A stretch of DNA of 64,000 bases, taken from positions 9,520 through 73,519 of the forward strand of contig DASYUI010000015.1 in NCBI GenBank assembly GCA_036001425.1. The letters run 5' to 3'. Positions 6,032 to 64,000 of the stretch are shown in pieces; within the stretch, counting starts at the first letter, position 1, and each line of letters opens with the position of its first letter. Source of the DNA: Actinomycetota bacterium. GTDB lineage: Bacteria; Actinomycetota; UBA4738; CALAEC01. The notes beneath the pieces are model-generated. The model did no database searches, had not been told where the DNA came from, and saw only the letters and a list, made by a program, of their open reading frames with translations. The position numbers and the translations under genes were made by a program.

Positions 6032-6048
6032 CCGTGCTCCTCGACTTT

Positions 6049-6235
6049 CCCCCTGGACCCCCTCATCCCTTCTCCTCAGTCCGCTGCCTTTGGCAGCGTC
6101 CTTCGACCAGGGGGAATGCAGCAGCCTTATTCCGCTCGGCTTCGCCTCGCGGGGCTGCTGGCACCCCACGGATCTCGCTCGCTACGCTCGCTGCGATCCG
6201 CGGGGACCCCGCGACTTCCCCCCTGGACCCCCTCA
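6049..6235 (-). repeat. modular intergenic hairpin repeat, copy 2 (A-B-C-D plus a second partial A)
   Basis: Full-length copy between the rmlB stop (6233-6235) and the rmlD start. Flanked by a 24-nt direct repeat CGACTT(T/C)CCCCCTGGACCCCCTCA at 6042-6065 and 6212-6235. Confidence 0.85.
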
Positions 6236-7231
6236 CCGGGACACCTCGCGCGGCGGGGTGACGATGGGACCGGCGTGTGCACCACGGAGCCAATCGAGAT
6301 GATCCCGGTACCACTCGATCGTTCGGGCCAGTCCCTCCTGGAAGGGGATCTGCGGACGCCAGCCCAGGGCTTGGACTCGGTCGGACGTCACCCCGTAGCG
6401 GAAGTCGTGCCCCGGGCGGTCCGGGACGAACGAGATCAGTGACTCGGGCGCCCCGGCCAGGCGGCAGATCGTCCGGGCCAGCTCGAGGTTGGAGAGCTCG
6501 TGTCCAGCGCCGACGTTGTAGACGATCCCGGGTTCCCCGCGATCGAGCACCAGGAGCGCGGCGCGGACCCAGTCCCGCACATGGAGGAACTCCCGGCGTT
6601 GCTCTCCGTGGCCGTACACGGGGATCGGACGGCCCTCGAGGGCCGCCATCGTGTACGTGGGGACGACCCGTTCGATCTGCCGAGGTCCGTAGGCATTGGT
6701 TCCCCTCAGCACCGTCACGTTCGCGCCGTAGGTAACGACGTACGCCTGGCACAGCAGATCGGCCGCAGCCTTGCTCGCGGCGTACGGGCTGCGAGGCGCG
6801 AGGGCGTGGTCCTCGTCGAACACCCCGCCGGCGGGATCGCCCGCTCCGTACACCTCATCGGTAGAGATCATCAGCATCCGCGTTCCCGAATCCCGGCACG
6901 TCTCCAGCACGGCCTGTGTCCCCATCACGTTGACCGTGAGAAACTCCCTGGGCTCGGCGATGCTCCGGTCCACGTGGGACTCGGCGGCGGCATGGATCAC
7001 CGCGTCGGCCGTCTCGACGAGCTCGCGCACCGCGCCGGCGTCGAGGATGTCCCCCACCACGAGCCGGAATCGCGGGTCCTCTTCATGCTCCTCGAGGTTC
7101 GCCCGGCTCCCGCCGGTGGACAGCCGGTCGAGGACCGTCACTCGCGTGCCCGGTTCCTCCAGAAGGCGATCGACCAGGTGAGAGCCGATGAATCCCGCCC
7201 CCCCGGTGACGAGCACGTGGCGCTCGGTCAC
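6233..7231 (-). CDS. rmlB: dTDP-glucose 4,6-dehydratase
   Basis: Trimmed to GTG at 7231 (VTERHVLVTGGAGFIGSH...), with catalytic YAASKAA. GTGA overlap with the rmlC stop. Confidence 0.9.
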   Translation of the reverse strand: MTERHVLVTGGAGFIGSHLVDRLLEEPGTRVTVLDRLSTGGSRANLEEHEEDPRFRLVVGDILDAGAVRELVETADAVIHAAAESHVDRSIAEPREFLTVNVMGTQAVLETCRDSGTRMLMISTDEVYGAGDPAGGVFDEDHALAPRSPYAASKAAADLLCQAYVVTYGANVTVLRGTNAYGPRQIERVVPTYTMAALEGRPIPVYGHGEQRREFLHVRDWVRAALLVLDRGEPGIVYNVGAGHELSNLELARTICRLAGAPESLISFVPDRPGHDFRYGVTSDRVQALGWRPQIPFQEGLARTIEWYRDHLDWLRGAHAGPIVTPPREVSR

Positions 7232-47400: not shown

Positions 47401-49149
47401 GTGGCGAAGGTCCGGGTGCTGGTGGCGAACAGAGGCGAGATCGCCGTCCGGGTGATCCGGACGTGCCGGGAGCTGGGCATCCCCACCGTCGCCGTGTACT
47501 CGGACGCCGACCGCGACGCTCTCCACGTCGAGTTGGCCGACCGGGCGTACCGGATCGGGCCTCCCCCGCCCACACAGTCGTACCTGAACGTGAAAGCGAT
47601 CCTCGAGGTTGCTGCCAAGGGTAAAGCCACCGCCGTCCATCCAGGGTACGGGTTCCTCGCCGAGAACCCCGACTTCGCCCGGGCCTGTGCCGGTGCCGGG
47701 CTCACATTCATCGGCCCCACGCCGGAGGCCATGGAGATCATGGGGGACAAGGCCGCCGCTCGCCGAACGGCCGAGCGCATCGGCGTCCCGGTCATCCCCG
47801 GGATCTCCGATCCGGTCGGGCCCGAGGAGGCGCTGAAGATCGCCGGTCGCATCGGCTACCCCCTGGCGGTCAAGGCGGCGTTCGGAGGCGGAGGCCGCGG
47901 GATGCAGCTGGTGGAGGGTCCGGATCTGCTGGAAGAGGCCGTCGAGCGGTCGGCGCGCGAGGCGCAGTCGTACTTCGGGCGACCCGAGGTGTACCTCGAG
48001 CGGTACATCACGCGCGCCCACCACGTCGAGGCCCAGATCATCGCGGATAGGCATGGGAACTTCTTGTCCCTCGGCGAGCGGGACTGCACCCTCCAACGGC
48101 GCTATCAGAAGCTCGTCGAGGAGAGCCCCTCCCCCGTGGTCGACGCCGACCTGCGGACGCGCATCGGCGAGGCCGCACTGGCCGTGGCCAAGGAGGCGGG
48201 GTACGTGAACGCGGGGACCGTCGAGTTCCTCGTGGACGACGACCGCTCCTTCTACTTCCTGGAGATGAACACGCGTCTCCAGGTGGAGCACCCGGTCACC
48301 GAGATGGTGGCGGGAGTGGACATGGTCCGGCTCCAGATCGACGTGGCGATGGGCGAGAAGGTGGACCTGGCACCCAGCCTGCGAGGCCACGCCATCGAGT
48401 GCCGGATCAACGCGGAGGACCCGGCACGCGACTTCATCCCGGCACCGGGGCTGATCACTCGGTTCCGTCCCCCCACCGGCCCGTTCGTTCGCGTCGATGC
48501 GGGGATCACCGAGGGACGGGTCATACCGGGTGACTACGACTCGCTGTTCTGCAAGCTCGTCGTGTGGGGAGAGAACCGCGAACAGGCCCGGCGCCGGATG
48601 CTCCGGGCCCTCGACGAGTTCGAAGTCGAAGGCGTCCCCACGACGATCCCCTTCTACCGATGGGTGCTCGACACCCTGACGTTCGTCGAGGCCAGTCACA
48701 CCACCAAGTGGGTAGAGCGCGCGCTGCATGACGGGCAGTTCCCTGCGCCGGCGTTCGGCGAAGCGAAGGCCGCGGCCGAGCCGCTACCGGCGGGAGCCGG
48801 GCCGGCGTCGGCCGCCTCCCGAGTGGTGGTCGAGGTGAACGGGCGGCGAATCCCGGTTCGTGTGTGGGGGGAGGATCTCCCATCCGCCCCAGCCCCTCCC
48901 ACCGGGGACACCCACGGGATCCACGCGCACGGAGCGGATTCTGTGGCGGCCCCCATGCAGGGCACGATCCTCAAGGTCATGGTGGAGGAGGGGCAGGAGA
49001 TCCGGTCCGGTGACGTGATCTGCGTCCTCGAGGCGATGAAGATGGAGAACCACGTGACGGCCACCCACGATGGACGGGTGCAGCAGGTGGCGGTCAAGGC
49101 CGGCGACGTCGTGGAGACGGGCCAGATCCTCGTGACCCTCGGCGATTAG
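47401..49149 (+). CDS. accA: acyl-CoA carboxylase alpha subunit (biotin carboxylase + BCCP)
   Basis: Trimmed to GTG at 47401 (SD GGAGGGA). VLVANRGEIAVRVIRT..., ATP-grasp blocks, and C-terminal biotinylation motif EAMKMEN. Divergent from birA. Confidence 0.9.
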   Translation: MAKVRVLVANRGEIAVRVIRTCRELGIPTVAVYSDADRDALHVELADRAYRIGPPPPTQSYLNVKAILEVAAKGKATAVHPGYGFLAENPDFARACAGAGLTFIGPTPEAMEIMGDKAAARRTAERIGVPVIPGISDPVGPEEALKIAGRIGYPLAVKAAFGGGGRGMQLVEGPDLLEEAVERSAREAQSYFGRPEVYLERYITRAHHVEAQIIADRHGNFLSLGERDCTLQRRYQKLVEESPSPVVDADLRTRIGEAALAVAKEAGYVNAGTVEFLVDDDRSFYFLEMNTRLQVEHPVTEMVAGVDMVRLQIDVAMGEKVDLAPSLRGHAIECRINAEDPARDFIPAPGLITRFRPPTGPFVRVDAGITEGRVIPGDYDSLFCKLVVWGENREQARRRMLRALDEFEVEGVPTTIPFYRWVLDTLTFVEASHTTKWVERALHDGQFPAPAFGEAKAAAEPLPAGAGPASAASRVVVEVNGRRIPVRVWGEDLPSAPAPPTGDTHGIHAHGADSVAAPMQGTILKVMVEEGQEIRSGDVICVLEAMKMENHVTATHDGRVQQVAVKAGDVVETGQILVTLGD

Positions 49150-49318
49150 GGGGTCCAAGGGGGAAGCAGCGGGGCCCCCGCGGATCGCAGCGAGCGGAGC
49201 GAGCGAGATCCGTGGGGTGCCAAGCAGCCCCGCGAGGCGGAGCCGAGCGGATCAGGCTGTTTCATTTCCCCTGGCCGAAGCGCTTGCCGGAGGCGAGGGG
49301 CTGAGGATGGGAAAAGAG
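49150..49318 (+). repeat. modular intergenic hairpin repeat, copy 6 (A-B-C-D)
   Basis: Begins directly after the accA TAG (49147-49149): GGGGGTCCAAGGGGG..CCCCCGCGGATCGCAGCGAGCGGAGCGAGCGAGATCCGTGGGG..AGCAGCCCCGCGAGGCGGAGCCGAGCGGATCAGGCTG..CCCCTGGCCGAAGCGCTTGCCGGAGGCGAGGGGCTGAGGATGGG. Confidence 0.85.
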
Positions 49319-49343
49319 AGCGAGCTGGCCGAGGCGCGCTGGG

Positions 49344-49745
49344 TCAGCGAGATGGAGGCCCCACCGACGGAAGGAACCGGCCGATGAGCGCTCGGCGCTG
49401 GGACACCGCCCGGTACAGCGAACCGGATGCTCCGCGAGCTCGCTCCGACCGGCCCAGGAATCGGCCCGCCCCTCTGAGCGGGGGCAGGAGCTCCAGGAGC
49501 GGGCCGATGGCGTCCGGTCCCGACAGCACCCGCCCGTCGCGGTACAGGTGGAACGCGCCGTACCGCTCCTGCTTGGAGAGCCGGCCGAGGTGGCGGTCGG
49601 CATCGGCCGAGTCGAGGGTGGCCGTCCGCAGGCGCTTCCGCGTGTCGGCTGCGAGGACGAGTCGTACGGTGAGCCGACAGACCTTGCACTCCCCGTCGTA
49701 GAACACGATCGGGCTCTCGGGGGCGCGGCGCCGGAGGGGGCTCAC
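49344..49745 (-). CDS. DCC-family thiol-disulfide oxidoreductase (DUF393)
   Basis: Trimmed to GTG at 49745 (GTGA overlap). IVFYDGECKVCRLTVRLV is the DCC1-like CxxC N-terminus. Confidence 0.7.
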   Translation of the reverse strand: MSPLRRRAPESPIVFYDGECKVCRLTVRLVLAADTRKRLRTATLDSADADRHLGRLSKQERYGAFHLYRDGRVLSGPDAIGPLLELLPPLRGAGRFLGRSERARGASGSLYRAVSQRRALIGRFLPSVGPPSR

Positions 49746-50437
49746 CCCTTCGGGGGGCGGGCCCAGTCGTCGCGACCCACGAGGCGGACACCCGCGTCCC
49801 GGATGCCGTAGCGGCGGTTCACCGAAACCAGGACGGCGGTGAGCGGCTCCAGGATCCGCGCCATGGACAGGGCGCCGCAGTCGACCCACCGGAGGCCCTC
49901 GATCCTGTCCACGAGCCCGCCGATCTCCGCCTTGGCCTCGGTGTCATCGCCGCACAGTAGGACGTCGCCTGCTGGGGTCCGGTCCAGGTCCTGGAGGACC
50001 TCGGCGCTCACCGAATGGAACCCCGATACCAGGCGGGTCTTCTTCGGAAGGAGACCCTTGGCCTGCTCGGCGGCCGAGCCCGCCCAGGGGCGGAGGACCT
50101 GCCAGGCCCGGCCGCCCACGGCGGTCGCCAGCGGCGTGGTGGTGTCGCACACGACCGCCCGCTCGGGGACGTGGTCGGCGATGGACCGGTAGATGTCGGC
50201 CTGGCCGCCGTAGGGGACGGTCACGAACACGACGTCGGCCGCCGCCACCGCCTGCGTGTTCTCGGCCCCGCCCAGGGTGGTGCCCCCTTCGGGGATCAGC
50301 TCGTTTCCCCGGCGGGCCGCTTCCTCTCCCCGCTCCTCCGACCGCGAGCCGATGATCACCTCCTCGCCGGCCCGGGCGAGGTGGAGGGCCAGCCCGAACC
50401 CGAGATCGCCGGTGCCCCCGACGATGGCGATGGTCAC
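49742..50437 (-). CDS. npdG: F420-dependent NADP oxidoreductase (NpdG/Fno-like)
   Basis: 231 aa. MTIAIVGGTGDLGFGLALHLARAGEEVIIGSR... Rossmann start and the overall pattern of NADPH-dependent F420 reductases. Confidence 0.8.
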   Translation of the reverse strand: MTIAIVGGTGDLGFGLALHLARAGEEVIIGSRSEERGEEAARRGNELIPEGGTTLGGAENTQAVAAADVVFVTVPYGGQADIYRSIADHVPERAVVCDTTTPLATAVGGRAWQVLRPWAGSAAEQAKGLLPKKTRLVSGFHSVSAEVLQDLDRTPAGDVLLCGDDTEAKAEIGGLVDRIEGLRWVDCGALSMARILEPLTAVLVSVNRRYGIRDAGVRLVGRDDWARPPKG

Positions 50438-50477
50438 GGGACGACCCGGTCGCCGGCGTGAAAGGAGGAACGAGCGC

Positions 50478-52061
<1,584 letters not shown>

Positions 52062-52131
52062 GACCGCCTAAGCGTACCGCCTCGCGCCGCCGTAAGGATT
52101 CGGTAATCCGCCCCTGCTACGTTGCGCAGCC

Positions 52132-52563
52132 GTGCCTGACGTGGTGCTTCCGGTGCTGAACGAGGCCGCTGCGCTCCCCCGGGTGCTGGGGCGGATGCTG
52201 GAGGGGTACCGGCCTATCGTGGTGGACAACGGCTCCGCCGACGGATCTTCCCGGATCGCAGAGGAGCTTGGCGCGCGGGTGGTTCGGAAGCCGGTCCGCG
52301 GCTTCGGCGCCGCCTGCTACGCGGGGCTCGAGGCGGCCAGCGACGAGGTCGTGCGCTTCATGGACTGCGACGGGTCGCTCCACCCCGGCGACCTCCCCCT
52401 CGTGGCGGGCCCCGTCCTCGCCGCTCAAGCGGACCTGGTCCTCGGGGAGCGGGTGCCCGACCGCGGTGCCTGGCCATATCACGCGCGGTTGGCCAATCGA
52501 CTCCTCGCGCGGGAGGTCCGGCGACGCACGGGAATCCACCTGCGGGACGTGGGACCGATGCGA
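52132..52563 (+). pseudogene. family 2 glycosyltransferase, 5' fragment (similarity ends at ~52563)
   Basis: VVLPVLNEAAALPRVL...IVVDNGSADGS...FMDCDGSLHP...LRDVGPMR is GT2-like. After 52563 the same frame gives low-complexity sequence to 52971. Confidence 0.55.
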
Positions 52564-53524
52564 GAACGACACGGGTACGGCGGTCCTGCTGCGGGCCCTT
52601 CACAGAGCGCGGTTCCGCGGGCGACTGGTCCTGGCGAGCAGCATGGTGGTGTACGGGGAAGGCGCGTACCGCTGCCCCGAGCACGGATCTGTCCGCCCCG
52701 GCCCCCGCGACCCGGCCCGGCTGGCGGCGGGCCTGTTCGACTCTGCCTGTCCGGCCTGCGGTTGGGACCTGGAGCCGGAGCCGGTCGGCGAAGAGGCCCC
52801 CCTCGATCCGCGAAACGTCTACAGCGCGACGAAGACGATGCAGGAGCACCTGTGCCGCGCGTTCGCCCGCGAGCACGGCGTCGGCCTCACGATCCTCCGA
52901 TACCACAACCTGTACGGGTCTCGGATGCCTCGGGATACGCCCTACGCCGGAGTAGCGAGCATCTTCCGTAGCGCCCTGGAGGCGGGCCGGGCCCCGGACG
53001 TCTACGAGGACGGCCGGCAGCTACGCGACTTCGTGCACGTCCGGGACGTGGCCCGGGCGAACGTCCTGGCCCTCATGTCTGAAGACGCCTCCGGCACGTT
53101 CAATGTGGCCAGCGGGCACCCGCGGACGGTCGGGGAGCTGGCTCACACTTTGGCAGATGCCATCCCCGGGGGCCCTCGCCCTCGGGTCACCGGACGCTAC
53201 CGACTGGGCGACGTCCAGCACGTCTTCGCATCTACGGAGCGGATCCGGCGATCGCTCGGATTCACGGCAACGGTCCCTTTCGCCGATGGCGTTGCCGAGC
53301 TCGCTCGGGCGTCCTTGCGCGCCCCGGCGCTACCCCGGGCTCCTGCGAATCGCGCGCCAGAAGCGGCGCGGTGCTCTAGGACCCTTCCTGGACCTGATAG
53401 ATCTCGTCGGCGACCATACCGTGGGCTTCCCTGTGGACGGTCGCCGCGGTCTCCGCGTCTGGAGCCTCGACCAGGCAGAAGATCTTGCCGGCGCTGTCGT
53501 CGACCCAGTACTTCATGTACTTGA
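52562..53524 (+). pseudogene. NAD-dependent epimerase/dehydratase (extended SDR), 3' fragment lacking the Rossmann GxxGxxG start
   Basis: In the +1 frame relative to the GT2 fragment. (E)NDTGTAVLLRAL...RLVLASSMVVYGEG...NVYSATK...ILRYHNLYG...DFVHVRDVA. Recognisable similarity ends ~53326, but the frame stays open to 53524, overlapping the convergent gene. Confidence 0.55.
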
Positions 53525-53630
53525 CGCCGTACTTGTCCTGAGTCTGGACGTCCTTCGCGTGGGCCTGGGCGACGTCGCTCGCCGTGGCTCCCTCGGGCAT
53601 TTGCTGGTGTACGTCCAAGAACAGCGGCAT
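53376..53630 (-). CDS. DUF4242-like small protein
   Basis: Trimmed to ATG at 53630 with a strong SD (GGAGGAGG). MPLFLDVHQQMPEGATASDVAQAHAKDVQTQDKYGVKYMKYWVDDSAGKIFCLVEAPD is typical of DUF4242/SCO4226-like proteins (from memory). Confidence 0.6.
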   Translation of the reverse strand: MPLFLDVHQQMPEGATASDVAQAHAKDVQTQDKYGVKYMKYWVDDSAGKIFCLVEAPDAETAATVHREAHGMVADEIYQVQEGS

Positions 53631-53741
53631 ACGGCCACCTCCTCCGGGGCGTGGAGCCCCGACCCTGCTCCCGGCGGGCACCGCCACGCTAGCACCGTGG
53701 AAGAGCCCGGGGAAGCGGGACCGGGGACCGCCCTCCGGCGC

Positions 53742-53747
53742 TAGACT
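53742..53747 (+). promoter_or_regulatory. candidate -10 box (TAGACT) upstream of sdhC
   Basis: TAGACT 12 nt upstream of the TTG at 53760, in the divergent intergenic region. Pattern only. Confidence 0.25.
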
Positions 53748-53759
53748 GGATGCGATCCC

Positions 53760-54161
53760 TTGAAGCGGACCTCCGAGTTCGGAAGCCTGTACAAGGGTCG
53801 GGAGGGCCAGTGGTCCTGGATCGCCCACCGGGTGACCGGGGTCGGCATCCTGGCCTTTCTCTTCGTTCACATCGTCGACACCGCGCTGGTGGCATGGGGC
53901 CCGAGCGCCTACAACAAGGTCGTCGCGGTCTATCACCATCCGATCATCCAGATGATGGAGCTCGGCCTGGTGGGGGCGGTCATCTACCACGCGCTCAACG
54001 GGATCCGCATCATGATCATCGACTTCTGGCCGAGAGCCTCCCTCTACCAGGCTCGCCTGTTCTGGGGGACGGCAACCCTCTTTGCCGCGGCGATGGTCCC
54101 CGTCACCTGGCTGATGGGGACCCGGATCGTGCAGGCCATCCTGAACGAGGGTCTGTTCTGA
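53760..54161 (+). CDS. sdhC: succinate dehydrogenase cytochrome b subunit
   Basis: 133 aa with three TM helices. [21 protein letters not shown] heme-His context. First gene of the cluster. Confidence 0.8.
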
Positions 54162-54580
54162 TGGCGGTGGAAGCCCGTCGGGCCGCCCCCGAGAGGCACC
54201 CTCCGGGGCCGCGCCCCCGCCCCGCCGGGCTCGAGCTGTGGACATGGTTGTTCATGCGCCTGTCGGGGATCGTTCTCCTCTTCCTGGCGGTCGGGCACGT
54301 CCTGATCATGCACGTGATGGAGGACGGCGTGCAGCGAGTCAACTTCGATTTCGTCGCGGAGCGGTGGTCCGGCGGGTTCTGGCGGACCTGGGACTGGCTT
54401 ATGCTCTCGCTCGCCCTCCTGCACGGCCTGGCGGGCCTGCGGGTCATCATCATGGACTACGTCCGGCGGCCCGGCTGGCGACTCGCGTGGAACTCGTTCT
54501 TCGGGGTCATGGGGGTGACCTTGTTCGCCCTGGGCACGATCATCGTCTTCACCTTCGATCCATCCCAGTTCCGTTTCTGA
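54161..54580 (+). CDS. sdhD: succinate dehydrogenase hydrophobic membrane anchor subunit
   Basis: 139 aa. ATG at 54161 in a TGATG overlap with the sdhC stop. [23 protein letters not shown]... three TM helices. Confidence 0.75.
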
Positions 54581-56313
54581 TGACGCAGGTCCACACCTAC
54601 GACGCGGTGATCGTCGGGGCGGGCGGTGCCGGGCTCCGCGCCGCCATCGAGGCCTCTGATCGGGTCCGCACCGCGGTGATCTCCAAGCTCTACCCGACGC
54701 GATCGCACACCGGGACGGCGCAGGGAGGGATGTGCGCGGCGCTGGGCAACGTCGAGGAAGACTCTCCGGAATGGCACACCTTCGACACCGTGAAGGGAGG
54801 GGACTACCTCGTGGATCAGCCCGCCGCGGACGTGATGTGCCGGGAGGCCATCGACGCGGTCATCGAGCTCGAGCACTGGGGCTTCCCCTTCAACCGCACG
54901 CCTGAGGGGAAGATCGACCAGCGCCGGTTCGGCGGGCACACCCGCAACCACGGTGAGGCGCCGGTCCGACGGGCCTGTTACGCGGCCGACCGGACCGGAC
55001 ACATGATCCTTCAGACCCTGTACCAGCAGTGCATCAAGCGCGACGTCCGGTTCTTCAACGAGTTCTACGTGCTCGATCTCGTCCTCGAGGATGGCCGGGC
55101 CGCCGGAGTAGTCGCCTACGAGCTGGCTACCGGGGAGCTGCACGTGTTCCGGGCCAAGGCCGTCCTCTTCGCGACGGGAGGCTACGGAAAGATCTTCAAG
55201 ATCACCTCCAACGCCCACACCCTCACCGGCGACGGCCTCGGCGTGTGCTATCGGCGGGGCATCCCCCTCGAGGACATGGAGTTCTTCCAGTTCCACCCGA
55301 CCGGCATCTACAAGATGGGGATCCTCATCTCCGAGGCCGTGCGGGGCGAGGGTGGCATCCTCCTCAACGGCGAGGAGGAGCGGTTCATGGAGCGTTACGC
55401 CCCGACGATCAAGGACCTGGCCCCCCGTGACATGATCGCCCGGGCCATATACCACGAGATCCACGAGGGCCGCGGGGTTGGAGGCAAGGACTACGTGCAC
55501 CTCGACGTCCGCCACCTGGACCCAGAGATCATCGAGAAGAAGCTGCCCGACGTCACCGAGTTCGCCCGGATCTATCTGGGGGTGGAGCCCCTCCGGGAGC
55601 CGATCCCCATCCAGCCCACGGCGCACTACGGGATGGGGGGGATCCCCACCGATGTGGACGGCCGGGTGGTGCTCGGAGAGGCCGAGAAGCCAGTGCCCGG
55701 GCTCTACGCCGGCGGAGAGTGCGCGTGCGTCTCGGTGCATGGGGCCAACCGACTCGGGACGAACTCACTCCTCGATATCGTGGTGTTCGGCAAGCGAGGC
55801 GGGCGGCATATGGCGGAGTACGCTCAGCAGGCTGGCCTGGCGCAGTTCCCCACGGACCCGGAGCGGCCCACGGGCGAGCTGCTCCACCGGCTCTTGGGCT
55901 CCACAGGAACCGAACGCGTCCCGGAGATCCGGGAGGAGTTGCAGGAGAACATGTCTGACCTGGCGGGGGTGGTGCGCACCGAGGAGAGCGGGCGGAAGAT
56001 GCAGGATATCCTCGACTCCTTGCGAGAGCGGTACGGGCGGGCCGTGGTCCAGGACAAGGGCAAGGTGTACAACACCGACCTCATGGAAGCCGTGGAGCTG
56101 GAGTTCCTCCTCGACTGCGCGGACACTCTGGTGGCCGCGGCTCTGGCCCGGGAAGAGAGCCGGGGGGGGCACTACCGGGAGGACCATCCCCTACGGGACG
56201 ACGATCACTGGCTCCGACACTCCCTGGCCTATCGCGAGCCGGACGGGTCCGTGCGCCTGGAGTACAAGCCGGTGAAGCTCGGCGCGTACGTGCCCATGGA
56301 GCGGAAGTACTGA
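54580..56313 (+). CDS. sdhA: succinate dehydrogenase flavoprotein subunit
   Basis: 577 aa. ATG at 54580 in a TGATG overlap. [16 protein letters not shown]..., SHTGTAQGG (FAD-His), HPTGIY..., [24 protein letters not shown]. Confidence 0.9.
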
Positions 56314-58022
56314 TGGAGACGATCGCTCACGACATCGTCATCGTGGGGGGTGGGGGTGCGGGTCTCCGGGCGGCCATCGCTGCCGCAGAGGTCTCGGATG
56401 CGCTGAGCATCGCCCTGGTGTCCAAGGTCTACCCGATGCGCAGCCACACCGTGTCAGCCGAGGGGGGTGCGGGAGCGGTCGTCCGGGAGGACGATAGCCT
56501 CGACCTCCACGCCTTCGACACCATCCGCGGAAGCGACTGGCTCGCTGACCAGGACGCAGTGGAGGCCTTCGTCTCCGAGTGCTTTCCGGAGATGATCCGG
56601 CTGGAGCACTGGGGATGTCCGTGGAGCCGGGAACCGGACGGGCGGCTGGCCGTCCGACCCTTCGGCGGGATGAGCGTGCCCAGAACGCTGTTCGCTGCCG
56701 ACAAAACCGGGTTCCACATGCTCCACGCCCTCTTCCAGACCTCCCTGAAGTACGAGCGGATCACCCGCTACGACGAGTTCTTCGTAACGAAGCTCCTGAT
56801 CGAGGACGGCCGGTGCGCGGGTGTGGCCGCCATGGATCTTCGGGACACCGAGGTCAGGTGCATCACCGGGAAGGCCGTCATCCTATGCACCGGTGGCGCC
56901 GGGCGCACCTACTCCTTCACCACCAACGGGGCCATCAAGACGGGCGACGGGATGGCGCTGGCCTACCGGGCGGGCGTCCCCCTCAAGGACATGGAGTTCG
57001 TTCAGTACCATCCGACCGGCCTCCCCGGGACAGGGATCCTCATCACCGAGGCCGCCCGGGGGGAGGGCGGGTACCTGCTGAACAAGGAGGAGAGGCGGTT
57101 CCTCGAGGACTACATCCCGTCGAAGATGGAGCTGGGGCCCCGGGACATCCTGTCCCGGGCGATCATGCAGGAGATCGAGAAGGGCCAGGCGTTCGAAGGG
57201 CCGCATGGGGAGTACGTGCACCTCGACGTCCGCCACCTCGGCGAGGAGACGATCGACAGGAACCTGCCGTTCGTCCGGGAGCTGGCCCGGAACTATGTGG
57301 GGATCGACCCGGTCCACGAGCCCATCCCGGTGCGGCCGGTGGTCCACTACTGGATGGGCGGCATCGACACCGACATCCTGGGCCGGACCCGGCTCCCTGG
57401 CCTGTACGCGGCGGGGGAGGCCGCCTGCGTCAGCATCAACGGCGCCAACCGGCTGGGCTCGAACTCCCTCAGCGAGTGCCTGGTGTTTGGGGCGAGGGCG
57501 GGGAGGCAGGCCGCGGAGGACGCTCTCGACGCAACCGGACCCACGCGGGGTCCCCTCGCGAAGCTCGCCCAGGCCGAACAGGACCGGCTGGTCGGGGACT
57601 ATCTGGACAAGACGGGAGGCCGGGAACGGATCGGCGCGATCCGCCGGGACCTCCAGGCCGCCATGGAGAAGGGAGCCGGCATCTTCCGGACCGAGGAGTC
57701 GCTGAAGGACGCAGTCGAGGAGATCCGCGGACTCCGGGGGCGGTACCGGGACCTGAGCCTCGACGATCACGACCGAGCCTTCAACACCGAGCTGGTGGCG
57801 GCCCTCGAGCTCGGTAACATGCTCGACGTGGCCGAGGCGGTGGTCGCGTCAGGCCTCGAGCGGCGGGAGTCGCGGGGATCCCACACCCGGTCGGATTACC
57901 CCTCCCGCGATGACGATCGGTTCCTGAAGCACAGCCTGGCCTTCGCCACCTCGGAGGGCCCCCGGATCGAGTACGGGGACGTGACGATCACCCGGTGGCC
58001 GCCGGCGGAGCGAGAGTACTAA
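56313..58022 (+). CDS. frdA: fumarate reductase flavoprotein subunit
   Basis: 569 aa. [71 protein letters not shown] and [18 protein letters not shown] closely track E. coli FrdA as I recall it. ATG is in a TGATG overlap with the sdhA stop. Confidence 0.85.
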
Positions 58023-58188
58023 GGGGTCCAGGGGGAAAGTGCCGGGGTCCCCGCGGATCGCAGCGAGCGAAGCGAGCGAGATCCGCGGGGTGTCCAGCAG
58101 CCCCGCGAGGCGAAGCCGAGCGGGTCAAGTCTGCTGCATTCCCCCTGGCCGAAGCGCCTCGCCGAAGGCGAGGGGCTGAGGAAGGAGA
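58023..58188 (+). repeat. modular intergenic hairpin repeat, copy 7 (A-B-C-D), inside the frd cassette
   Basis: Starts directly after the frdA TAA (58020-58022) and ends ~15 nt before the frdBC ATG. Used as the reference copy for module definitions. Confidence 0.85.
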
Positions 58189-58203
58189 ATAGGAGCGTCG
58201 GAC

Positions 58204-59358
58204 ATGGCCGAAGAGAGGATGGCGCTGAAGGTGGCCCGGTGGCGGCCGGGACACGTTCCCGTTCCCTACTACGACGAGTACGAGGTCCCCTACCGCGAGG
58301 ACATGGTGGTCCTCGACGCGCTGAACCACATCAAGGACGACATCGACGGGAGCCTGGCCTACCGTTGGTCGTGCCGGATGGGTGTGTGCGGCTCTTGCGG
58401 GATGATGGTGAACGGGGAGCCCCGGCTCACCTGCGCCACGTTCCTTAGAGAGTTCCGCCCGGAACCGGTTGTCGTCGAGCCCCTCCAGCACTTTCCTGTG
58501 GTCCGCGACCTGGTCGTGGACATGAGCGACTTCATGGAGAAGCTGAAAGAGGTCAAGCCCTGGATCATCCGGGAGGACGAGAAGCCCGCCGAGGAGGGCG
58601 AATACCTCCAGACCCCCGAGGAGATCGATGTCTACAAGCAGTTCAGCATGTGCATCAACTGCATGCTCTGCTACTCCGCCTGCCCCGTGTACGGCCAGGA
58701 CCCAGACTTCCTGGGCCCCGCGGCGATCGCCCTGGCCCACCGGTACAACTTGGACTCCAGGGACCAAGGACGGGCAGAGCGAAAGGACGTCCTGGAGGTC
58801 GACTGGGGCATCTGGGACTGCACGTTCGTTGGGGAGTGCACGGTCGTGTGCCCCAAGGACGTCGACCCGGCGGGGGCGATCCAGCGCTCCAAGGTCGCCG
58901 CGGCCACGGGGATGCTCCGCTCGGTGGTGTGGCCGTTCTCGGGGCCGAAGGTGCGGACCGGTGCGGGCCGGCGGTACCCCGTCCACGTCCCCAAGATGCC
59001 CCGGGCCTGGTGGCTCAAGACCGCCCCATATCGGCGGTTCGTCGCCCGGGAGCTCACGTCGGTGTTCGTGGCGGCCTGGTCCGTGATCCTCCTGTTGTTC
59101 CTGTTCGCACTGTCCCGTGGGCCCGAGGCCTACGAGGCGTTCCTCCGGTGGCTCGGCCTGCCCGCGATCATCGCCCTCTCCGCCGTCACCCTGGGGGCGG
59201 TGGTGTACCACACGGGCACCTGGTTACGCCTGACGGCGCACGTGCTGGCGGTTCGCTTCCTGGGGAAGGCCGTGCCGGGCCCCATCAAGGTGGGGGCGCT
59301 CGTCGTCGCCTTGATCGTGGCCTCCGCCGTGGTCGCCTACTTCCACGTCTGGTGGTAG
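58204..59358 (+). CDS. frdBC: fumarate reductase iron-sulfur subunit fused to membrane anchor subunit C
   Basis: 384 aa uninterrupted ORF. Residues 1-~240 are FrdB-like ([44 protein letters not shown]). Residues ~258-384 are FrdC-like ([29 protein letters not shown]...YHTGTWLRL...HVWW, against E. coli [28 protein letters not shown]...LHTKTWFEL...ALYW). Confidence 0.85.
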
Positions 59359-59360
59359 CC

Positions 59361-59747
59361 ATGGCCAAGCCGAAGCAGCGGGAGAATAGGGGCCCGCTCC
59401 CGTCGCCGGAGCTCGCCTTCTGGTCGCTCTTCTCGGCGGGCGGGATGGTGGCCGCGTTCCTCTTCCCCGTCCACATCGCGATCCTGGGGATCGCTTACGG
59501 CCTCGGATGGCTTCCCGATGACGCCTTGTCCTACGAGCGGGTCCTCGACCTGGTCCGCCACCCCCTGGCCAAGCTCTACCTCGGGGTCCTAGTCAGCCTC
59601 CCGCTGTTCCACTGGGCCCACCGGTTCCGGTTCACCATCCACCACGAGCTCGGGATCCACGGCGGAAAGCTGCACATCGCCGCGGCCTGCTACGGGACCG
59701 CCGTGGTTGGTACGGCCCTCACGATCTGGGTGCTCGTTCGCATCTGA
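59361..59747 (+). CDS. frdD: fumarate reductase membrane anchor subunit D
   Basis: 128 aa. ...FWSLFSAGGMVAAFLFPVHI...DALSYERVL... matches E. coli FrdD ([20 protein letters not shown]...DALSYERVL) from memory. Confidence 0.8.
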   Translation: MAKPKQRENRGPLPSPELAFWSLFSAGGMVAAFLFPVHIAILGIAYGLGWLPDDALSYERVLDLVRHPLAKLYLGVLVSLPLFHWAHRFRFTIHHELGIHGGKLHIAAACYGTAVVGTALTIWVLVRI

Positions 59748-59827
59748 CCCAGGGTGGTTCTTCGGTGCTGCGTCCGGCAGACGGTTCCAAGATCGGGCGG
59801 CGCGCGCCACGATATCATCGGTCGCCG

Positions 59828-60526
59828 ATGGAATTGACGCTGCGCATCCGCCGGTACAACCCCGAGGTGAGCGCCGACCCCTGGTGGGACGAGTTCACCG
59901 TGGAGATGGAGCCCTCCGACCGGCTCCTCGACGCCCTCCACGAGGTCAAGTGGCGCCACGACGGCACGCTGGCCCTCAGGCGGTCGTGCGCACACGGCGT
60001 CTGTGGCTCGGACGCCATACTGGTCAACGGGAGGAACGACCTGGCGTGCAAGGTCCTGGTGAAGGACGTCGCACCGAAGGTGACCGTCGAGCCGATCCGG
60101 GGGCTCCCGGTGAAGAAGGACCTGATCGTGGACATGGAGCCCTTCTTCGAGGGCTACCGGGCTGTGCTCCCGTACCTCGTCAACGACGAGGATGCCGGTG
60201 ACCGCGAACGGATCCAGAGCCCAGAGGAGCGGGAGCGATTCGATGACACCACGAAGTGCATCCTGTGCGCGGCGTGCACCACGTCGTGCCCGATCTTCTG
60301 GGGAGACGGCCAGTACATCGGCCCGGCCGCGATCGTCAACGCCCACCGATTCATCTTCGACTCGAGGGATCAGGGAGCGAAGGAACGCCTCCGAGTGCTA
60401 TCGGAGAAGACCGGGGTGTTCCGGTGCCGGACCACGTTCAACTGCACGGAGGCCTGCCCTCGCGGTATCAAGGTCACCCAGGCCATCCAAGAGGTGAAGC
60501 GGGCCATCCTCTTCGAGCGTATGTGA
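59828..60526 (+). CDS. sdhB: succinate dehydrogenase iron-sulfur subunit
   Basis: Trimmed to ATG at 59828 (MELTLRIRRYNPEV...RRSCAHGVCGSDAILVNG...CILCAACTTSCP...CTEACPRGI). This aligns with the E. coli SdhB start MRLEFSIYRYNPDV. Confidence 0.85.
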   Translation: MELTLRIRRYNPEVSADPWWDEFTVEMEPSDRLLDALHEVKWRHDGTLALRRSCAHGVCGSDAILVNGRNDLACKVLVKDVAPKVTVEPIRGLPVKKDLIVDMEPFFEGYRAVLPYLVNDEDAGDRERIQSPEERERFDDTTKCILCAACTTSCPIFWGDGQYIGPAAIVNAHRFIFDSRDQGAKERLRVLSEKTGVFRCRTTFNCTEACPRGIKVTQAIQEVKRAILFERM

Positions 60527-60527
60527 C

Positions 60528-61016
60528 CTACTCGGCGACGCGCTCGGTCCCGCTCTCGCGCCGACGCCGGTCCGTGTCTCGGAACGTGAGGAACGAGAAC
60601 TTGCCGGTCGCCTCCAGCACGCCGAACTTGACCTCGCGCAGGTCGGCGATGCCTTGCTCGCGTGCAGCGTCCGTCAGCTCGTCCACCGTGACCCGTTCGA
60701 TCCGGAGGGCCTCCTGCTGGATGCGGCCGTCCCGGATCACGATCACCGGAGCGCCCTCCACCGCCCTCCGGGTCGTGGTCCACCGAAAGCTCACGTAGGA
60801 CCACACCAGGATCCAGAAGCCCAGTGTCCCGATGGCCAGGAACGCGCCGGTGACCGACATGTCCTCCTGGGTGGCGCCCTGCTGGACCAGGTCGCCCATC
60901 GTGACCAACAACACGAGCTCGAACGCGCTCATCTGCGAGAGCTCCCGCTTGCCCATCACCCTGACCAGGAACCAGATCAGGAAGTAGATCGCTGAGGATC
61001 GGATGACGATCTCCAT
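60528..61016 (-). CDS. DUF421 (YetF-like) membrane protein
   Basis: 162 aa. IYFLIWFLVRVMGKRELSQMSAFELVLLVTMGD is the characteristic DUF421 N-terminus. Confidence 0.7.
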   Translation of the reverse strand: MEIVIRSSAIYFLIWFLVRVMGKRELSQMSAFELVLLVTMGDLVQQGATQEDMSVTGAFLAIGTLGFWILVWSYVSFRWTTTRRAVEGAPVIVIRDGRIQQEALRIERVTVDELTDAAREQGIADLREVKFGVLEATGKFSFLTFRDTDRRRRESGTERVAE

Positions 61017-61547
61017 CTACGGCACCACCCTTGTCGTATAGGCGACGGTCACGACGGGGACGTCGTCGACGAGCACCGAGGTCTCGCCCAACTGGCTGAG
61101 GTGCTCGGTCGGCTCGAGCCTCCCATCGAACGACACCCGGAGTGTGTCGCCGGGTGGTGGATCGAACTCCCAGATCACCACGTCCGGCGTTCCGGTGGTC
61201 GCGGACGGCTCCGGATGGGCCGCGTTGTAGTCGAAGAGCGTCAGGTATCGCCGGCTGGTGGCGATCCGGATCGGTCCGTCGAACCCACCCGACCGTTGAA
61301 CCTCGATGGACCACGGCGTGGACAGGCCCGGCCGACTCACCTTCGCGTACGCGACAGAGAGGCGATAGCCTCCTCCAGAGCTCGTCACGACGCCGAACCG
61401 CACTCCCAACAGATTTGCTCCCGCGAGCACCAGGACACCGACCAGCGCCGCCAGCCCAACCCGCCGTCCCGCCCGGGCCCGCCTCAGCCGGTCGAGATCG
61501 ACCGCCCGTGGGCTGGTGGGAAACTCCTTCAGGTCTTCCGACCCCAT
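61017..61547 (-). CDS. membrane-anchored hypothetical protein
   Basis: 176 aa with one TM helix (VGLAALVGVLVLAGANLLGV). No recognisable motif. Abuts the DUF421 gene start. Confidence 0.4.
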   Translation of the reverse strand: MGSEDLKEFPTSPRAVDLDRLRRARAGRRVGLAALVGVLVLAGANLLGVRFGVVTSSGGGYRLSVAYAKVSRPGLSTPWSIEVQRSGGFDGPIRIATSRRYLTLFDYNAAHPEPSATTGTPDVVIWEFDPPPGDTLRVSFDGRLEPTEHLSQLGETSVLVDDVPVVTVAYTTRVVP

Positions 61548-61649
61548 CGGTCCCTCCTTTCGTCACCACCGGGCGCATTGTGCCTCGCCGCGACACCGTT
61601 TCGCGGCAACTTCGCAGGGTAGATACGAAATAAGGAAAGGAGGGCCCAC

Positions 61650-61988
61650 ATGCCACAGCGTGCATGGACCAACAATCGAGAGCGGCAGTACGAGCACATC
61701 AAGGAGAGCGCCAAGGATCGCGGCGTCGGAACCAAGCGGGCCAAGGAGATCGCGGCGCGCACCGTGAACAAGGAGCGGGCCCGCTCCGGCGAGGCCACGC
61801 AGCGCTCCAGGAGCTCGACCCGCGACATCTCTTCGGGCCGCCGTGGGGGGCTGCGCTCGGGGACCAGCGGCCCGCGGGGCCGGACCAGGGAGCAGCTCTA
61901 CAACGAGGCCAAGAACCTGGGCATCGAAGGCCGCTCGAAGATGAACAAGCGGCAGCTCCAGGCCGCCGTCAACAGGAAGAAGGGCTAG
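61650..61988 (+). CDS. small basic protein with Rho_N/SAP-like C-terminal motif
   Basis: 112 aa. Strong SD AAGGAAAGGAGGG. C-terminal REQLYNEAKNLGIEGRSKMNKRQLQAAV resembles the Rho termination factor N-terminal (SAP-like) motif. Confidence 0.5.
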   Translation: MPQRAWTNNRERQYEHIKESAKDRGVGTKRAKEIAARTVNKERARSGEATQRSRSSTRDISSGRRGGLRSGTSGPRGRTREQLYNEAKNLGIEGRSKMNKRQLQAAVNRKKG

Positions 61989-62584
61989 GGCCGGAAGGAC
62001 CGTACGGGGGAGTACCGGCTGTCCGCGGTCCCCTCCTGCGAGCGCGCTCGGAAGGAGTAGAGGACGCCGTCACGGACCCGGACGGGGTTGCGGTTCCTGC
62101 CGAAGACCCCGCTCAGCGTGGTCGTGTCGGTCCTCCAGTTTCGCCAGTCGCCCGACCCGACCCGGAACTGGACGTCGTAGACGCTGCCCGTCTCCGAAGC
62201 CGCTGAAGCCCACCGGACAGTGAAGGGGAGCCCGTCCGGCGCACGGTTGAGCCTCACCGGGATCCGCACGAGGCCGTCCATCCCGCCGAACTCGCTGCCG
62301 TGAACCTCGCAGTAATAGTGGAAGGTTCCGGCGGAGAAGACGACATCGTAGGTGAACGCCGCGCTGGTGGGATCACCGTTGCGGAAGAGGAGGCCGTCCT
62401 CTCGAACATTGTGGTTGTTGCTGTTCGTCCCGTCGCTGAACCAGCGAACGGTGTCCCCTACCTGGTTCCCCACGACGTCTGGCGCGAAGAAATCGTCGTG
62501 GACATCGATGTCCATCCTTCCCGCCTGGGCCGCGCTGGGAAACAGCATGCCGATGGCGAGCACCAGCGGAACGAGCCTTGCCAT
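61985..62584 (-). CDS. secreted cupredoxin (plastocyanin/azurin-like) + beta-sandwich domain protein, paralog 1
   Basis: 199 aa with a signal peptide. NHNV...FHYYCEVHGSEFGGMDG supplies His/Cys/His/Met type-1 copper ligands. The C-terminal ~95 aa are FN3-like. Confidence 0.65.
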   Translation of the reverse strand: MARLVPLVLAIGMLFPSAAQAGRMDIDVHDDFFAPDVVGNQVGDTVRWFSDGTNSNNHNVREDGLLFRNGDPTSAAFTYDVVFSAGTFHYYCEVHGSEFGGMDGLVRIPVRLNRAPDGLPFTVRWASAASETGSVYDVQFRVGSGDWRNWRTDTTTLSGVFGRNRNPVRVRDGVLYSFRARSQEGTADSRYSPVRSFRP

Positions 62585-62600
62585 TCGCTCTCCTTTTCAG

Positions 62601-63215
62601 TCAGGTTCTGTACGAGGCCACCGGGGACCAGCCGCTCGTATTCGGGCCCTCCTGCGAGCGGGCCCGGAGCGAGTACCGGACATCATCGCGAACCCGAACC
62701 GGCTTCGCGTCCTTTCCGAACACGCCCTTGTTGTTCGTCGTGTCCGCCTTCCAGGTTCGCCATTCCCCGCGTCCGACCCGGAACTGCACGTCATAGGCCG
62801 TTCCGGTCTCCGACGCGCTCGTGGCCCATCGAACCGTGAATGACAAGCCGGTGGGTGCGCGATCGATGGTTACAGGAACGCGGACGAATCCGTCCATGTT
62901 GTCCGGCGTTCCGGGGACCGGCCCCCCGTGCGTCCGGCAGAAGAAGTGGAACGTGCCCGCCGAGAACACCACCGTGTAGTCGATCGGACCGTCGGTCGGT
63001 GGCCCGCTCTCGAAAAGCCACCCGTTCTCTCGTACGTTGTGTACACCGATCGAGTCGGGAGCTCGGTACCACCGGACCGAACCTCCGACGGCGACTCGCC
63101 TGGCGTCCGGCGAGAAGTAGTTGTCGTGGATGGCGATATCCGCCGTCCCGCCCATCGCCGGGGCGGCCACCAGCAGGGCCACGCCTACCACCAGCACGGC
63201 GACCCGCCGGATCAT
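62601..63215 (-). CDS. secreted cupredoxin + beta-sandwich domain protein, paralog 2
   Basis: 204 aa, collinear with paralog 1 (IAIHDNYFSPD.., VHNVRENGWLF.., FHFFCRTHGGPVPGTPDNMDG.., YDVQFRVG.GEWR.W). Confidence 0.65.
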   Translation of the reverse strand: MIRRVAVLVVGVALLVAAPAMGGTADIAIHDNYFSPDARRVAVGGSVRWYRAPDSIGVHNVRENGWLFESGPPTDGPIDYTVVFSAGTFHFFCRTHGGPVPGTPDNMDGFVRVPVTIDRAPTGLSFTVRWATSASETGTAYDVQFRVGRGEWRTWKADTTNNKGVFGKDAKPVRVRDDVRYSLRARSQEGPNTSGWSPVASYRT

Positions 63216-63362
63216 CCTCTTCCCGCCCCTTTCCCTCGGCGCGCCAAATTAGCAGGGCCGGAGCCCCGCCTGCACTCATTCAGACGACCGAGGGGACGGG
63301 AACGTTCCGCCTTCGCCGGAGACTTCAGGCCCAGCTTCGCCGGCCCCTGCTAGCCTAGCCCT

Positions 63363-64000
63363 GTGCCGCATCGGGTCACGCTCCTCCCCGGGGACGGCAT
63401 CGGCCCGGAGGTCGCCGCGGCGGCCCGCCGCGTGGTCGAGGCCACCGGCGTCGAGGTCGAGTGGGACGTTCAGCTTGCCGGGGCGGCGGTCCTCGACACG
63501 GAAGGCACCCCTCTCCCCGACCGCGTGATCGATTCCATCCGCGACTCCCGGATCGCCCTCAAGGGCCCCATCACCACACCCGTGGGAACGGGCTTTCGGA
63601 GCGTGAACGTTGCGCTTCGCCAGGAGCTCGACCTGTTCGCGGCGGTCCGTCCGTCCCGCGACTTCCGTGGAGTTCCCACGAGATACCCCGGCGTCGACAT
63701 CGTCGTCATCCGCGAGAACACCGAGGATCTGTACCAGGGGGTGGAGTTCCAGCGATCGTCGATGGAGGTGGCCCGGTTGAGCGTTGCGCTGAAGGAGCTG
63801 GCCGGTTTCACGCTCAAGGACGACGCGGGGGTCACGCTCAAACCCATCTCGGTAACCGGCACGCGCCGGATCGTTCGGTTCGCCCTGGAGCATGCGCGGC
63901 GCCACGGACGCAAGCGGATCACGGTGGGTCACAAGGCCAACATCATGAAGTTCTCCGACGGCGTCTTCCTGGCCACGGCTCTGGAGGTGGCCGAGGAGTA
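63363..64000 (+). CDS. isocitrate/isopropylmalate dehydrogenase family protein, IDH-like (3' end outside window)
   Basis: Own translation from GTG at 63363: VPHRVTLLPGDGIGPEVAAAARRVVEATG...ALKGPITTPVGTGFRSVNVALRQELDLFAAVRP...VVIRENTEDLY.... Open to the window end. Not in the ORF track because there is no stop. Confidence 0.8.
   Translation, partial: MPHRVTLLPGDGIGPEVAAAARRVVEATGVEVEWDVQLAGAAVLDTEGTPLPDRVIDSIRDSRIALKGPITTPVGTGFRSVNVALRQELDLFAAVRPSRDFRGVPTRYPGVDIVVIRENTEDLYQGVEFQRSSMEVARLSVALKELAGFTLKDDAGVTLKPISVTGTRRIVRFALEHARRHGRKRITVGHKANIMKFSDGVFLATALEVAEE

Follow-up and report, generated by a model that had tools for sequence, protein, structure and literature searches.

A fumarate reductase gene block nested between sdhA and sdhB in a lineage of uncultured soil Actinomycetota

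In the textbook organisms, Escherichia coli and the mycobacteria, the genes for succinate dehydrogenase (sdh) and fumarate reductase (frd) lie in separate, oppositely regulated operons. The described enzymes closest to those considered here are Mycobacterium smegmatis Sdh2 (SdhCDAB; PDB 6LUM), the orthologue of M. tuberculosis Rv3316-3319, and E. coli FrdABCD (PDB 1KF6/1L0V), whose M. tuberculosis counterpart is Rv1552-1555. Here we describe a cluster in which genes of both kinds are interleaved. It occupies positions 53760-60526 of a 64,000-nt stretch of contig DASYUI010000015.1 from an Actinomycetota bacterium (assembly GCA_036001425.1), a stretch referred to below as the window. Seven consecutive open reading frames (ORFs) on the + strand follow the order sdhC-sdhD-sdhA-frdA-frdBC-frdD-sdhB, with 3.5 kb of frd genes between sdhA and sdhB. 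This nested order is real, rare and limited to one lineage of uncultured soil Actinomycetota. We consider it likely that the cluster is a single seven-gene operon for two complete and separate complex II enzymes, that it is a derived rearrangement of an sdhCDAB locus, and that its Sdh half is dispensable in the clade. The parts of the cluster are as follows:

53631..53759, + strand: putative promoter region in the divergent intergenic region 5' of sdhC, with a conserved TAGACT
53760..54161, + strand: sdhC, cytochrome b membrane subunit, 133 aa, TTG start (Pfam Sdh_cyt, TIGR02970)
54161..54580, + strand: sdhD, membrane anchor subunit, 139 aa, start overlapping the sdhC stop in TGATG (Pfam Sdh_cyt)
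54580..56313, + strand: sdhA, succinate dehydrogenase flavoprotein, 577 aa (TIGR01816, 6LUM_A)
56313..58022, + strand: frdA, fumarate reductase flavoprotein, 569 aa, start overlapping the sdhA stop (TIGR01176, 1KF6_A)
58023..58203, + strand: frdA-frdBC spacer, 181 nt, with a structured repeat element of ~165 nt
58204..59358, + strand: frdBC, in-frame fusion of the Fe-S subunit FrdB and the membrane subunit FrdC, 384 aa (PRK12385, Fumarate_red_C)
59361..59747, + strand: frdD, second fumarate reductase membrane anchor, 128 aa (Pfam Fumarate_red_D, NF003977)
59748..59827, + strand: frdD-sdhB spacer, 80 nt
59828..60526, + strand: sdhB, succinate dehydrogenase Fe-S subunit, 232 aa, at the 3' end of the cluster (PRK05950, 6LUM_B)

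The layout of these genes is that of one co-expressed unit. TGATG stop/start overlaps are present at 54159-54163, 54578-54582 and 56311-56315, and only 2 nt separate frdBC from frdD. On the 5' side, a SCO4226-like gene (53376-53630, minus strand) diverges from sdhC, and on the 3' side a convergent YetF/DUF421 gene (60528-61016) ends 1 nt past the sdhB stop. Since seven genes run on the same strand between neighbours on the opposite strand, they form a discrete block, over which GC content is even (64-70%). Very probably, judging by this anatomy of a shared strand, opposite-strand bounds and overlapping or closely spaced genes, the cluster is one operon driven from the region 5' of sdhC. The likely promoter region is 53631-53759, where TAGACT (53742-53747, 12 nt before the sdhC TTG), conserved in the window and in the related loci L001, L004 and L005, offers a weak hint. 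A preliminary description of this DNA had given the same gene order and coordinates, the same three overlaps and the position of sdhB 80 nt past frdD, all of which held when the window was re-read and the gap measured, and among its two readings was one co-regulated unit, which the anatomy favours. It had also counted eight genes and overlooked the 181-nt gap between frdA and frdBC with its repeated structured element; there are seven ORFs because frdB and frdC are fused.

Gene identities were established with Pfam and NCBIfam profiles, followed by comparison with solved structures. On the Sdh side, SdhC scored 74.6 bits against TIGR02970, above the cut-off, and SdhD 37.9 bits against TIGR02968, just under the cut-off of 41.8. 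SdhA matched TIGR01816 (sdhA_forward) at 870 bits, above the cut-off; its best solved structure was M. smegmatis Sdh2 (6LUM_A, 853 bits, versus 453 for E. coli FrdA). SdhB scored 335 bits against PRK05950 and 353 against 6LUM_B, versus 160 against E. coli FrdB. All ligands of its [2Fe-2S], [4Fe-4S] and [3Fe-4S] clusters are present (C54, C59, D62, C74; C144/147/150/154; C200/206/210), and the [2Fe-2S] motif is the Asp variant (CxxxxCxxD) found in 6LUM and E. coli SdhB. The covalent-FAD-His motif of SdhA (RSHTG.AQGG) aligns with RSHTVSAQGG of E. coli SdhA, and its Gln is shared with M. smegmatis Sdh2 and mitochondrial SDHA. Like Sdh2, the window encodes a pair of small membrane subunits of the Sdh_cyt family, and both have a conserved His in a helix motif (SdhC His77 within IYHALNGIR, SdhD His88 within LLHGLAGLR) that, judged by eye, may correspond to a haem b ligand. 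The flavoprotein Gln motif and the Fe-S ligand set are thus those of a type C succinate:quinone reductase (SQR; SdhCDAB, Sdh2-like). The window differs from Sdh2 in three respects. Its sdhB lies 3.5 kb from sdhA, with frdA, frdBC and frdD interrupting the contiguous sdhC-sdhD-sdhA-sdhB run, a trait of gene order and not of the enzyme. Its SdhB lacks the N-terminal extension of ~25 residues, the alignment beginning at residue 26 of 6LUM_B. Finally, its sdh genes are paired, and probably co-expressed, with an frd set.

The Frd proteins point just as clearly to E. coli FrdABCD. FrdA had its best NCBIfam matches to TIGR01176 (fum_red_Fp, 839 bits) and PRK09231 (828 bits), both below the strict cut-offs (932.7 for the TIGR01176 equivalog), and its best solved structure was the E. 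coli quinol:fumarate reductase (QFR; 1KF6_A, 636 bits, versus 500 for 6LUM_A). FrdBC contains Fer2_3, Fer4 and Fumarate_red_C domains, retains all 11 cluster cysteines of FrdB and scored 342 bits against PRK12385, above the cut-off; its FrdB part scored 276 bits against 1KF6_B and 163 against 6LUM, and its FrdC part 57 bits against 1KF6_C. The anchor families Fumarate_red_C (PF02300, 88 bits) and Fumarate_red_D (PF02313, 105 bits) are both represented, and FrdD exceeded the cut-off of the FrdD equivalog NF003977 with 86.5 bits. The FrdA motif aligns with RSHTVAAEGG of E. coli FrdA and conserves the Glu of RSHTV.AEGG. E. coli mutagenesis indicates that Gln or Glu in RSHT..A(Q/E)GG tracks the distinction between SQR and QFR, a point that did not turn up in the literature searched. 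By its FrdA-type flavoprotein with Glu and its FrdC/FrdD anchors, the enzyme is a type D QFR (FrdABCD). It departs from the four separate polypeptides of that type, as FrdB and FrdC are one 384-aa ORF in five assemblies, and from the E. coli operon in that the frd block sits inside an sdh operon, has no frd promoter region of its own and has frdA overlapping, and probably coupled to, sdhA. The preliminary assignment of Sdh-type and Frd-type subunits is thus borne out by both profile and structure scores; the two enzymes are of ordinary, well-known kinds, and both look complete and functional.

A fusion of FrdB with FrdC has been described before. In the M. bovis lineage, including BCG Moreau, a 10-bp poly-G insertion near the end of frdB removes the stop codon and fuses the two proteins in frame, and in complementation of an frd knockout the fused FrdBC equalled the M. 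tuberculosis allele in that study (PMC7835394). The fusion in the window arose in a similar manner, by a small insertion near the frdB end that eliminates the stop; however, it is independent, being due to one extra nucleotide (+1 nt) roughly 15 nt upstream of the frdB stop; ancestrally, that stop shared GTGA with the frdC start. It is also fixed in five divergent assemblies (the window, L001, L003, L004 and L005 only, not L013 or other relatives) and is under purifying selection.

To find relatives, we used an FrdBC protein search, contig look-ups, a GTDB scan and a tblastn map, and added an SdhB metagenome scan. The FrdBC search returned many relatives in uncultured Actinomycetota. A synteny comparison, which the preliminary description had proposed, revealed the same nested order in L003 (a JGI contig, ~90% amino-acid identity), L005 (metagenome-assembled genome (MAG) JBOGWB01, 90-95%) and L013 (MAG CALAEC01, 78-83%, both ends cut by the contig). 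L001 and L004 are nested as well, with an internal deletion from sdhC into sdhA. In other relatives, the two operons stand in tandem, sdhCDAB-frdABCD (L022 and L011, with L090, L095 and L101 added by the metagenome scan), or frdABCD occurs alone (L002, L006, L007, L008 and L010). The tandem MAG loci encode orthologous Sdh and Frd proteins (75-84% identity) and, in L022, L090 and L095, have matching flanking genes, but in them sdhB precedes frdA and both operons keep their canonical internal order. The SdhB metagenome scan found only relatives of at most 84% identity, nearly all with canonical sdhCDAB, and no new nested loci: among the 80 closest metagenome SdhB loci, sdhA lies directly upstream of sdhB in 72, the contig gives no upstream context in five, and frdD is upstream in none. 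Outside this lineage, a locus of Armatimonadetes/CSP1-3 (L082; LDXQ01000018, 1-7958) likewise has an frd block interleaved in an sdh operon on one strand, in the order sdhD-frdA-frdB-frdC-frdD-fumC-sdhA-sdhB. It differs in that the insertion lies between sdhD and sdhA, the block carries fumC (class II fumarase) and the phylum is unrelated; its sdhA is split over two frames near codon 470 and appears frameshifted. The literature searches turned up one relevant report, on the FrdBC fusion of M. bovis, and no account of sdh and frd operons in interleaved or tandem order. The suggestion that the order had not been described therefore stands as far as the publications searched go, but the order is not unique, as several public MAGs carry it. 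Two ordinary enzymes have had their genes rearranged locally; the result is no novel type of system.

Within the actinobacterial lineage, these arrangements share one chromosomal locus. In 17 relatives with enough flanking sequence, the flanking genes are conserved: biotin carboxylase (BC), F420-type oxidoreductase and methylmalonyl-CoA mutase (MCM) genes on one flank, and two isocitrate/isopropylmalate-type dehydrogenase (IsoDH) genes and those for malate dehydrogenase (Mdh) and citrate synthase (CitS) on the other, with a class I fumarase in some loci. The neighbourhood comparison distinguished four states of the locus: sdhCDAB only (L097, L103, L108, L109 and L112), tandem (L022, L090 and L095; L101 and L011 are also tandem but were left out of this comparison), nested (the window and its close relatives) and frd only (L002, L006 and L010). 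The commonest is sdhCDAB alone, which is by inference the ancestral state. More broadly, a central-metabolism island spans ~47900-64000 of the window and is also present in L001-L022 and L087-L112. Between the mutase gene and sdhC, a stretch of ~1.6 kb in the window is absent in L003 and L005. Within it, at 52132-53340 (+ strand), a truncated family-2 glycosyltransferase fragment runs on into another frame, where an NAD-dependent epimerase is represented by its C-terminal half alone; both are probably pseudogene remnants.

The junctions of the frd block show where it lies relative to the ancestral operon. In L001, L003, L005 and L013, the sdhA-frdA spacer holds a homologous mini-ORF of 9 codons. 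Its ATG overlaps the sdhA stop (TGATG) in L001, L003 and L005, exactly as a canonical sdhB start does, and lies 6 nt past that stop in L013, after a TACTGA duplication; its stop overlaps the frdA start in all four loci (TGATG or TAGTG). In the window, L004 and L007, precisely the 29-nt segment flanked by two TGATGGAG direct repeats is missing. The direct sdhA/frdA overlap, singled out in the preliminary description as notable, is thus present but secondary, as it results from loss of the 29-nt mini-ORF that other nested loci keep. The old sdhB start (TGATGGAG) still stands upstream of frdA, and the mini-ORF may preserve the opening codons of the old sdhB in the role of a translational-coupling relay. 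At the other junction, sdhB of canonical relatives starts at the TGATG overlap with sdhA and has an N-terminal extension of 20-45 codons, whereas nested sdhB starts at MELTLRIRRYNPE and has no extension. The frdD-sdhB spacer ranges from 10 to 84 nt among nested loci. When these spacers were compared, as possible relics, with the coding region of the canonical sdhB extension in 20 tests, the window-L022 pair scored 16 versus 9.1 ± 1.7 (reached by 0.4% of shuffles) and the L005-L087 pair was nominally elevated (2% of shuffles), unlike the other L005 pairs and any L003 or L013 pair. A longer sdhB ORF starting from GTG at 59765 was considered but discarded, as the added segment lacks in-frame conservation in L005 and the interval between frdD and the ATG is a mere 10-12 nt in L001 and L004. 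Finally, blastn alignments of the window with L013 run unbroken across both junctions, which, together with the common mini-ORF, argues for a single origin of the nested order.

Since relatives carry sdhCDAB, tandem or frd-only arrangements at the same locus, the frd block can be placed at the old sdhB start. In the history that we favour, frdABCD would have come to lie right after the first two codons of the old sdhB at the ancestral sdhCDAB locus, between MCM and further TCA-cycle genes. These two codons would survive in the sister loci as the start of the 9-codon relay mini-ORF, deleted in the window, and sdhB would restart at a new ATG without its N-terminal extension. A single promoter in 53631-53759 would yield a polycistronic message, on which the overlaps and short gaps are expected to link the translation of sdhC, sdhD, sdhA and frdA, and likewise that of frdBC and frdD. 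SdhC, SdhD, SdhA and the displaced SdhB would form a haem-b, Sdh2-type succinate:menaquinone oxidoreductase, and FrdA, the FrdB-FrdC fusion and FrdD an E. coli-type, predicted haem-less quinol:fumarate reductase, each enzyme most likely assembling from its own subunits. Given the stop/start overlaps and short gaps, the two would be made together and not reciprocally regulated as in E. coli.

Several points weigh against parts of this reading. A sigma-70 promoter scan, not built for high-GC actinobacteria, found no promoter-like sites. In the window, 181 nt with a structured repeat lie between frdA and frdBC and a further 80 nt between frdD and sdhB; an internal promoter, a terminator or a processing site might be situated in one or the other. 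The view is confined to 64 kb of the genome, and other sdh or frd paralogues may exist elsewhere. As to history, the close nested clade has 100% support in neighbour-joining (NJ) trees, but their backbones are poorly resolved, and the argument for a single origin therefore rests on junction homology and not on the trees. In the Frd tree, L013 groups with the tandem loci L022 and L090 (48%) and not with the other nested loci (0%); in the Sdh trees it joins the nested clade with 51-58% support. The Sdh tree also places sdhCDAB-only loci between the nested and tandem clades, an order that leaves a block swap from a tandem ancestor inseparable from a separate insertion.

These points bear on how the frd genes reached their present position. 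The preliminary description had suggested, as one of two possibilities, that an frd cassette was inserted precisely at the sdhA/sdhB boundary. The site itself is well supported, as the old sdhB start remains 5' of frdA and the displaced sdhB lacks its N-terminal extension; insertion as the process is less certain, because tandem sdhCDAB-frdABCD occurs at the same locus and the nested order may thus be a local block swap instead of a fresh insertion. The frdABCD block may have crossed sdhB where the two operons already stood in tandem, duplication followed by loss being one conceivable way, or it may have entered the sdhB start in an event of its own. An insertion into an sdhCDAB-only lineage, independent of the event in the tandem lineage and with no swap, seems to us rather unlikely, yet it is the most serious alternative. 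The commonness of sdhCDAB alone at the locus speaks for it, as does the position of the sdhCDAB-only loci in the Sdh tree between the tandem clade (92%) and the nested loci with L013 (51%). The distant L082, with frdABCD-fumC between sdhD and sdhA, implies in addition that frd insertion into sdh operons recurs. However, a single clade with 100% support unites the actinobacterial Frd proteins, whether from nested, tandem or frd-only loci, two insertions of near-identical cassettes within 0.7 kb would need a targeting mechanism or strong selection, and no mobility genes or repeats flank the frd block.

The second question is whether the Sdh genes still matter. In pairwise comparisons of the window, L001 and L003-L005, all seven genes have dN/dS values of 0.04-0.36 (sdhC 0.04-0.12, sdhD 0.13-0.31, sdhA ~0.06, frdA ~0.13, sdhB 0.06-0.13), values that indicate purifying selection on every gene and hence maintenance of the intact nested operons. 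Nevertheless, the Sdh half appears dispensable in this clade: it has been deleted repeatedly, sdhB then seems to decay, and frd is retained in every case of sdh loss. The deletions in L001 (corresponding to about 54043-55868 of the window) and L004 (about 53904-55832) are independent, although their 3' breakpoints lie ~21 nt apart. In both, the 5' end of sdhC is fused to the last ~150 codons of sdhA (L001 5499-6251, L004 7657-8280), and the frame is open to the native sdhA stop beside frdA, which in L004 required a 1-nt deletion upstream of the breakpoint. Selection for uninterrupted translation into frdA might account for such open fusions, as might a hot spot for deletions. The sdhC remnant of L001 shows relaxed constraint, with 16:16 unique nonsynonymous:synonymous changes versus 1:9, 1:9 and 1:3 in intact copies. 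L007 keeps only ~30 nt of the sdhA 3' end and has lost sdhB altogether, L002 retains only the last ~33 sdhB codons directly after frdD, and L006, L008 and L010, which group with tandem L011, L095 and L101 (100% support), have lost sdhCDAB. Synonymous divergence between the window and L001 is uneven along the operon (frdBC 0.12, frdA 0.36, sdhB 0.68), which suggests recent homologous recombination among strains.

With at least five sdh loss events in close relatives (L001, L004, L002, L007 and L006/L008/L010), one might argue that only Frd matters here, that the Sdh genes are being lost and no longer play any part, and that the nested order is a transient stage of decay. We find this improbable: the window, L003 and L005 each retain the four sdh genes intact, with every ligand in place and dN/dS values of 0.04-0.31, and the nested order has lasted through ~20% protein divergence between the window and L013.

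Mixed complexes, raised in the preliminary description, fare worse still. SdhB, encoded behind frdD, might be an alternative Fe-S subunit for FrdA/FrdCD, or FrdBC might serve SdhA. In L001 and L004, sdhB lies only 10-12 nt behind frdD and remains a full-length ORF despite the sdhCDA deletion; its pairwise dN/dS there is still low (0.06-0.13), although this measure does not discriminate relaxed selection on sdhB after sdhCDA loss, for which lineage-specific counts and inspection of ligands are more informative. By these measures, SdhB of L001 has lost Cys154, the fourth Cys of CxxCxxCxxxCP, which we assign as a [3Fe-4S] ligand, and its lineage-specific nonsynonymous:synonymous ratio is raised to 20:40 versus 3:25 in the window. 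SdhB of L004 is still intact. The loss of the ligand in L001, the relic in L002 and the absence in L007, the latter two with frdABCD retained, fit a pattern in which SdhB is useless once SdhCDA is gone, and this decay argues against mixed Sdh/Frd complexes. Moreover, SdhB and FrdB are less than 40% identical, and all the cognate partners of either enzyme are encoded. Hybrids are therefore very unlikely. Equally hard to credit is a bolder version, in which SQR and QFR are co-translated adaptively as a succinate/fumarate-menaquinone redox buffer and SdhB also enters Frd-anchored complexes; if true, a natural hybrid complex II would have been hidden by conventional annotation. A chimeric assembly, in which the paralogous flavoprotein or Fe-S genes would have brought an sdh contig and an frd contig together, is conceivable because sdhA and frdA have stretches of 64-70% nucleotide identity, but it can be rejected, since the order and homologous junctions recur in independent samples and assemblers (fully in L003, L005 and L013, partly in L001 and L004), the junctions fall between genes outside the paralogous regions, and GC content is even.

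The element between frdA and frdBC belongs to a GC-rich intergenic repeat of ~165 nt, present in three copies in the window with ~82% mean column identity. The further copies, near 6166-6203 and 49178-49215, fall within these intervals:

around 6020-6260, - strand: repeat copy
around 49120-49360, + strand: repeat copy

The RNA of 58023-58203 is predicted to fold into a long stable structure (-99.4 kcal/mol, z = -4.1). The repeat is specific to this genome: it is absent from all 163 related loci, and where it stands in the window, relatives have a gap of 4-26 nt. An Rfam scan of the whole window, this element included, gave no matches, and a terminator scan gave three terminator-like sites, which did not exceed shuffled sequence and none of which lay at a gene boundary. 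The repeat looks REP- or MITE-like, one copy having landed inside the operon.

Because the enzymes themselves are ordinary, the interest of this locus is evolutionary and regulatory, not mechanistic. Its states can be arranged in a series: sdhCDAB, tandem, nested, nested with sdhCDA deleted, and frd alone with sdh relics. This series would represent repeated replacement of SQR by QFR at one chromosomal site, in the course of which a relic start codon appears to have been reused as a coupling mini-ORF. There is also a caution for automated pathway annotation, which might count as incomplete an sdhCDA set that has no sdhB next to it, or a lone ("orphan") sdhB. As for the physiology of these organisms, sdh has been lost repeatedly, a sign that QFR may be able to take over the oxidation of succinate. 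Where both enzymes are kept, the lineage would appear to have tied them together in a single unit with coupled translation, which implies that the two are used simultaneously and not in alternation.

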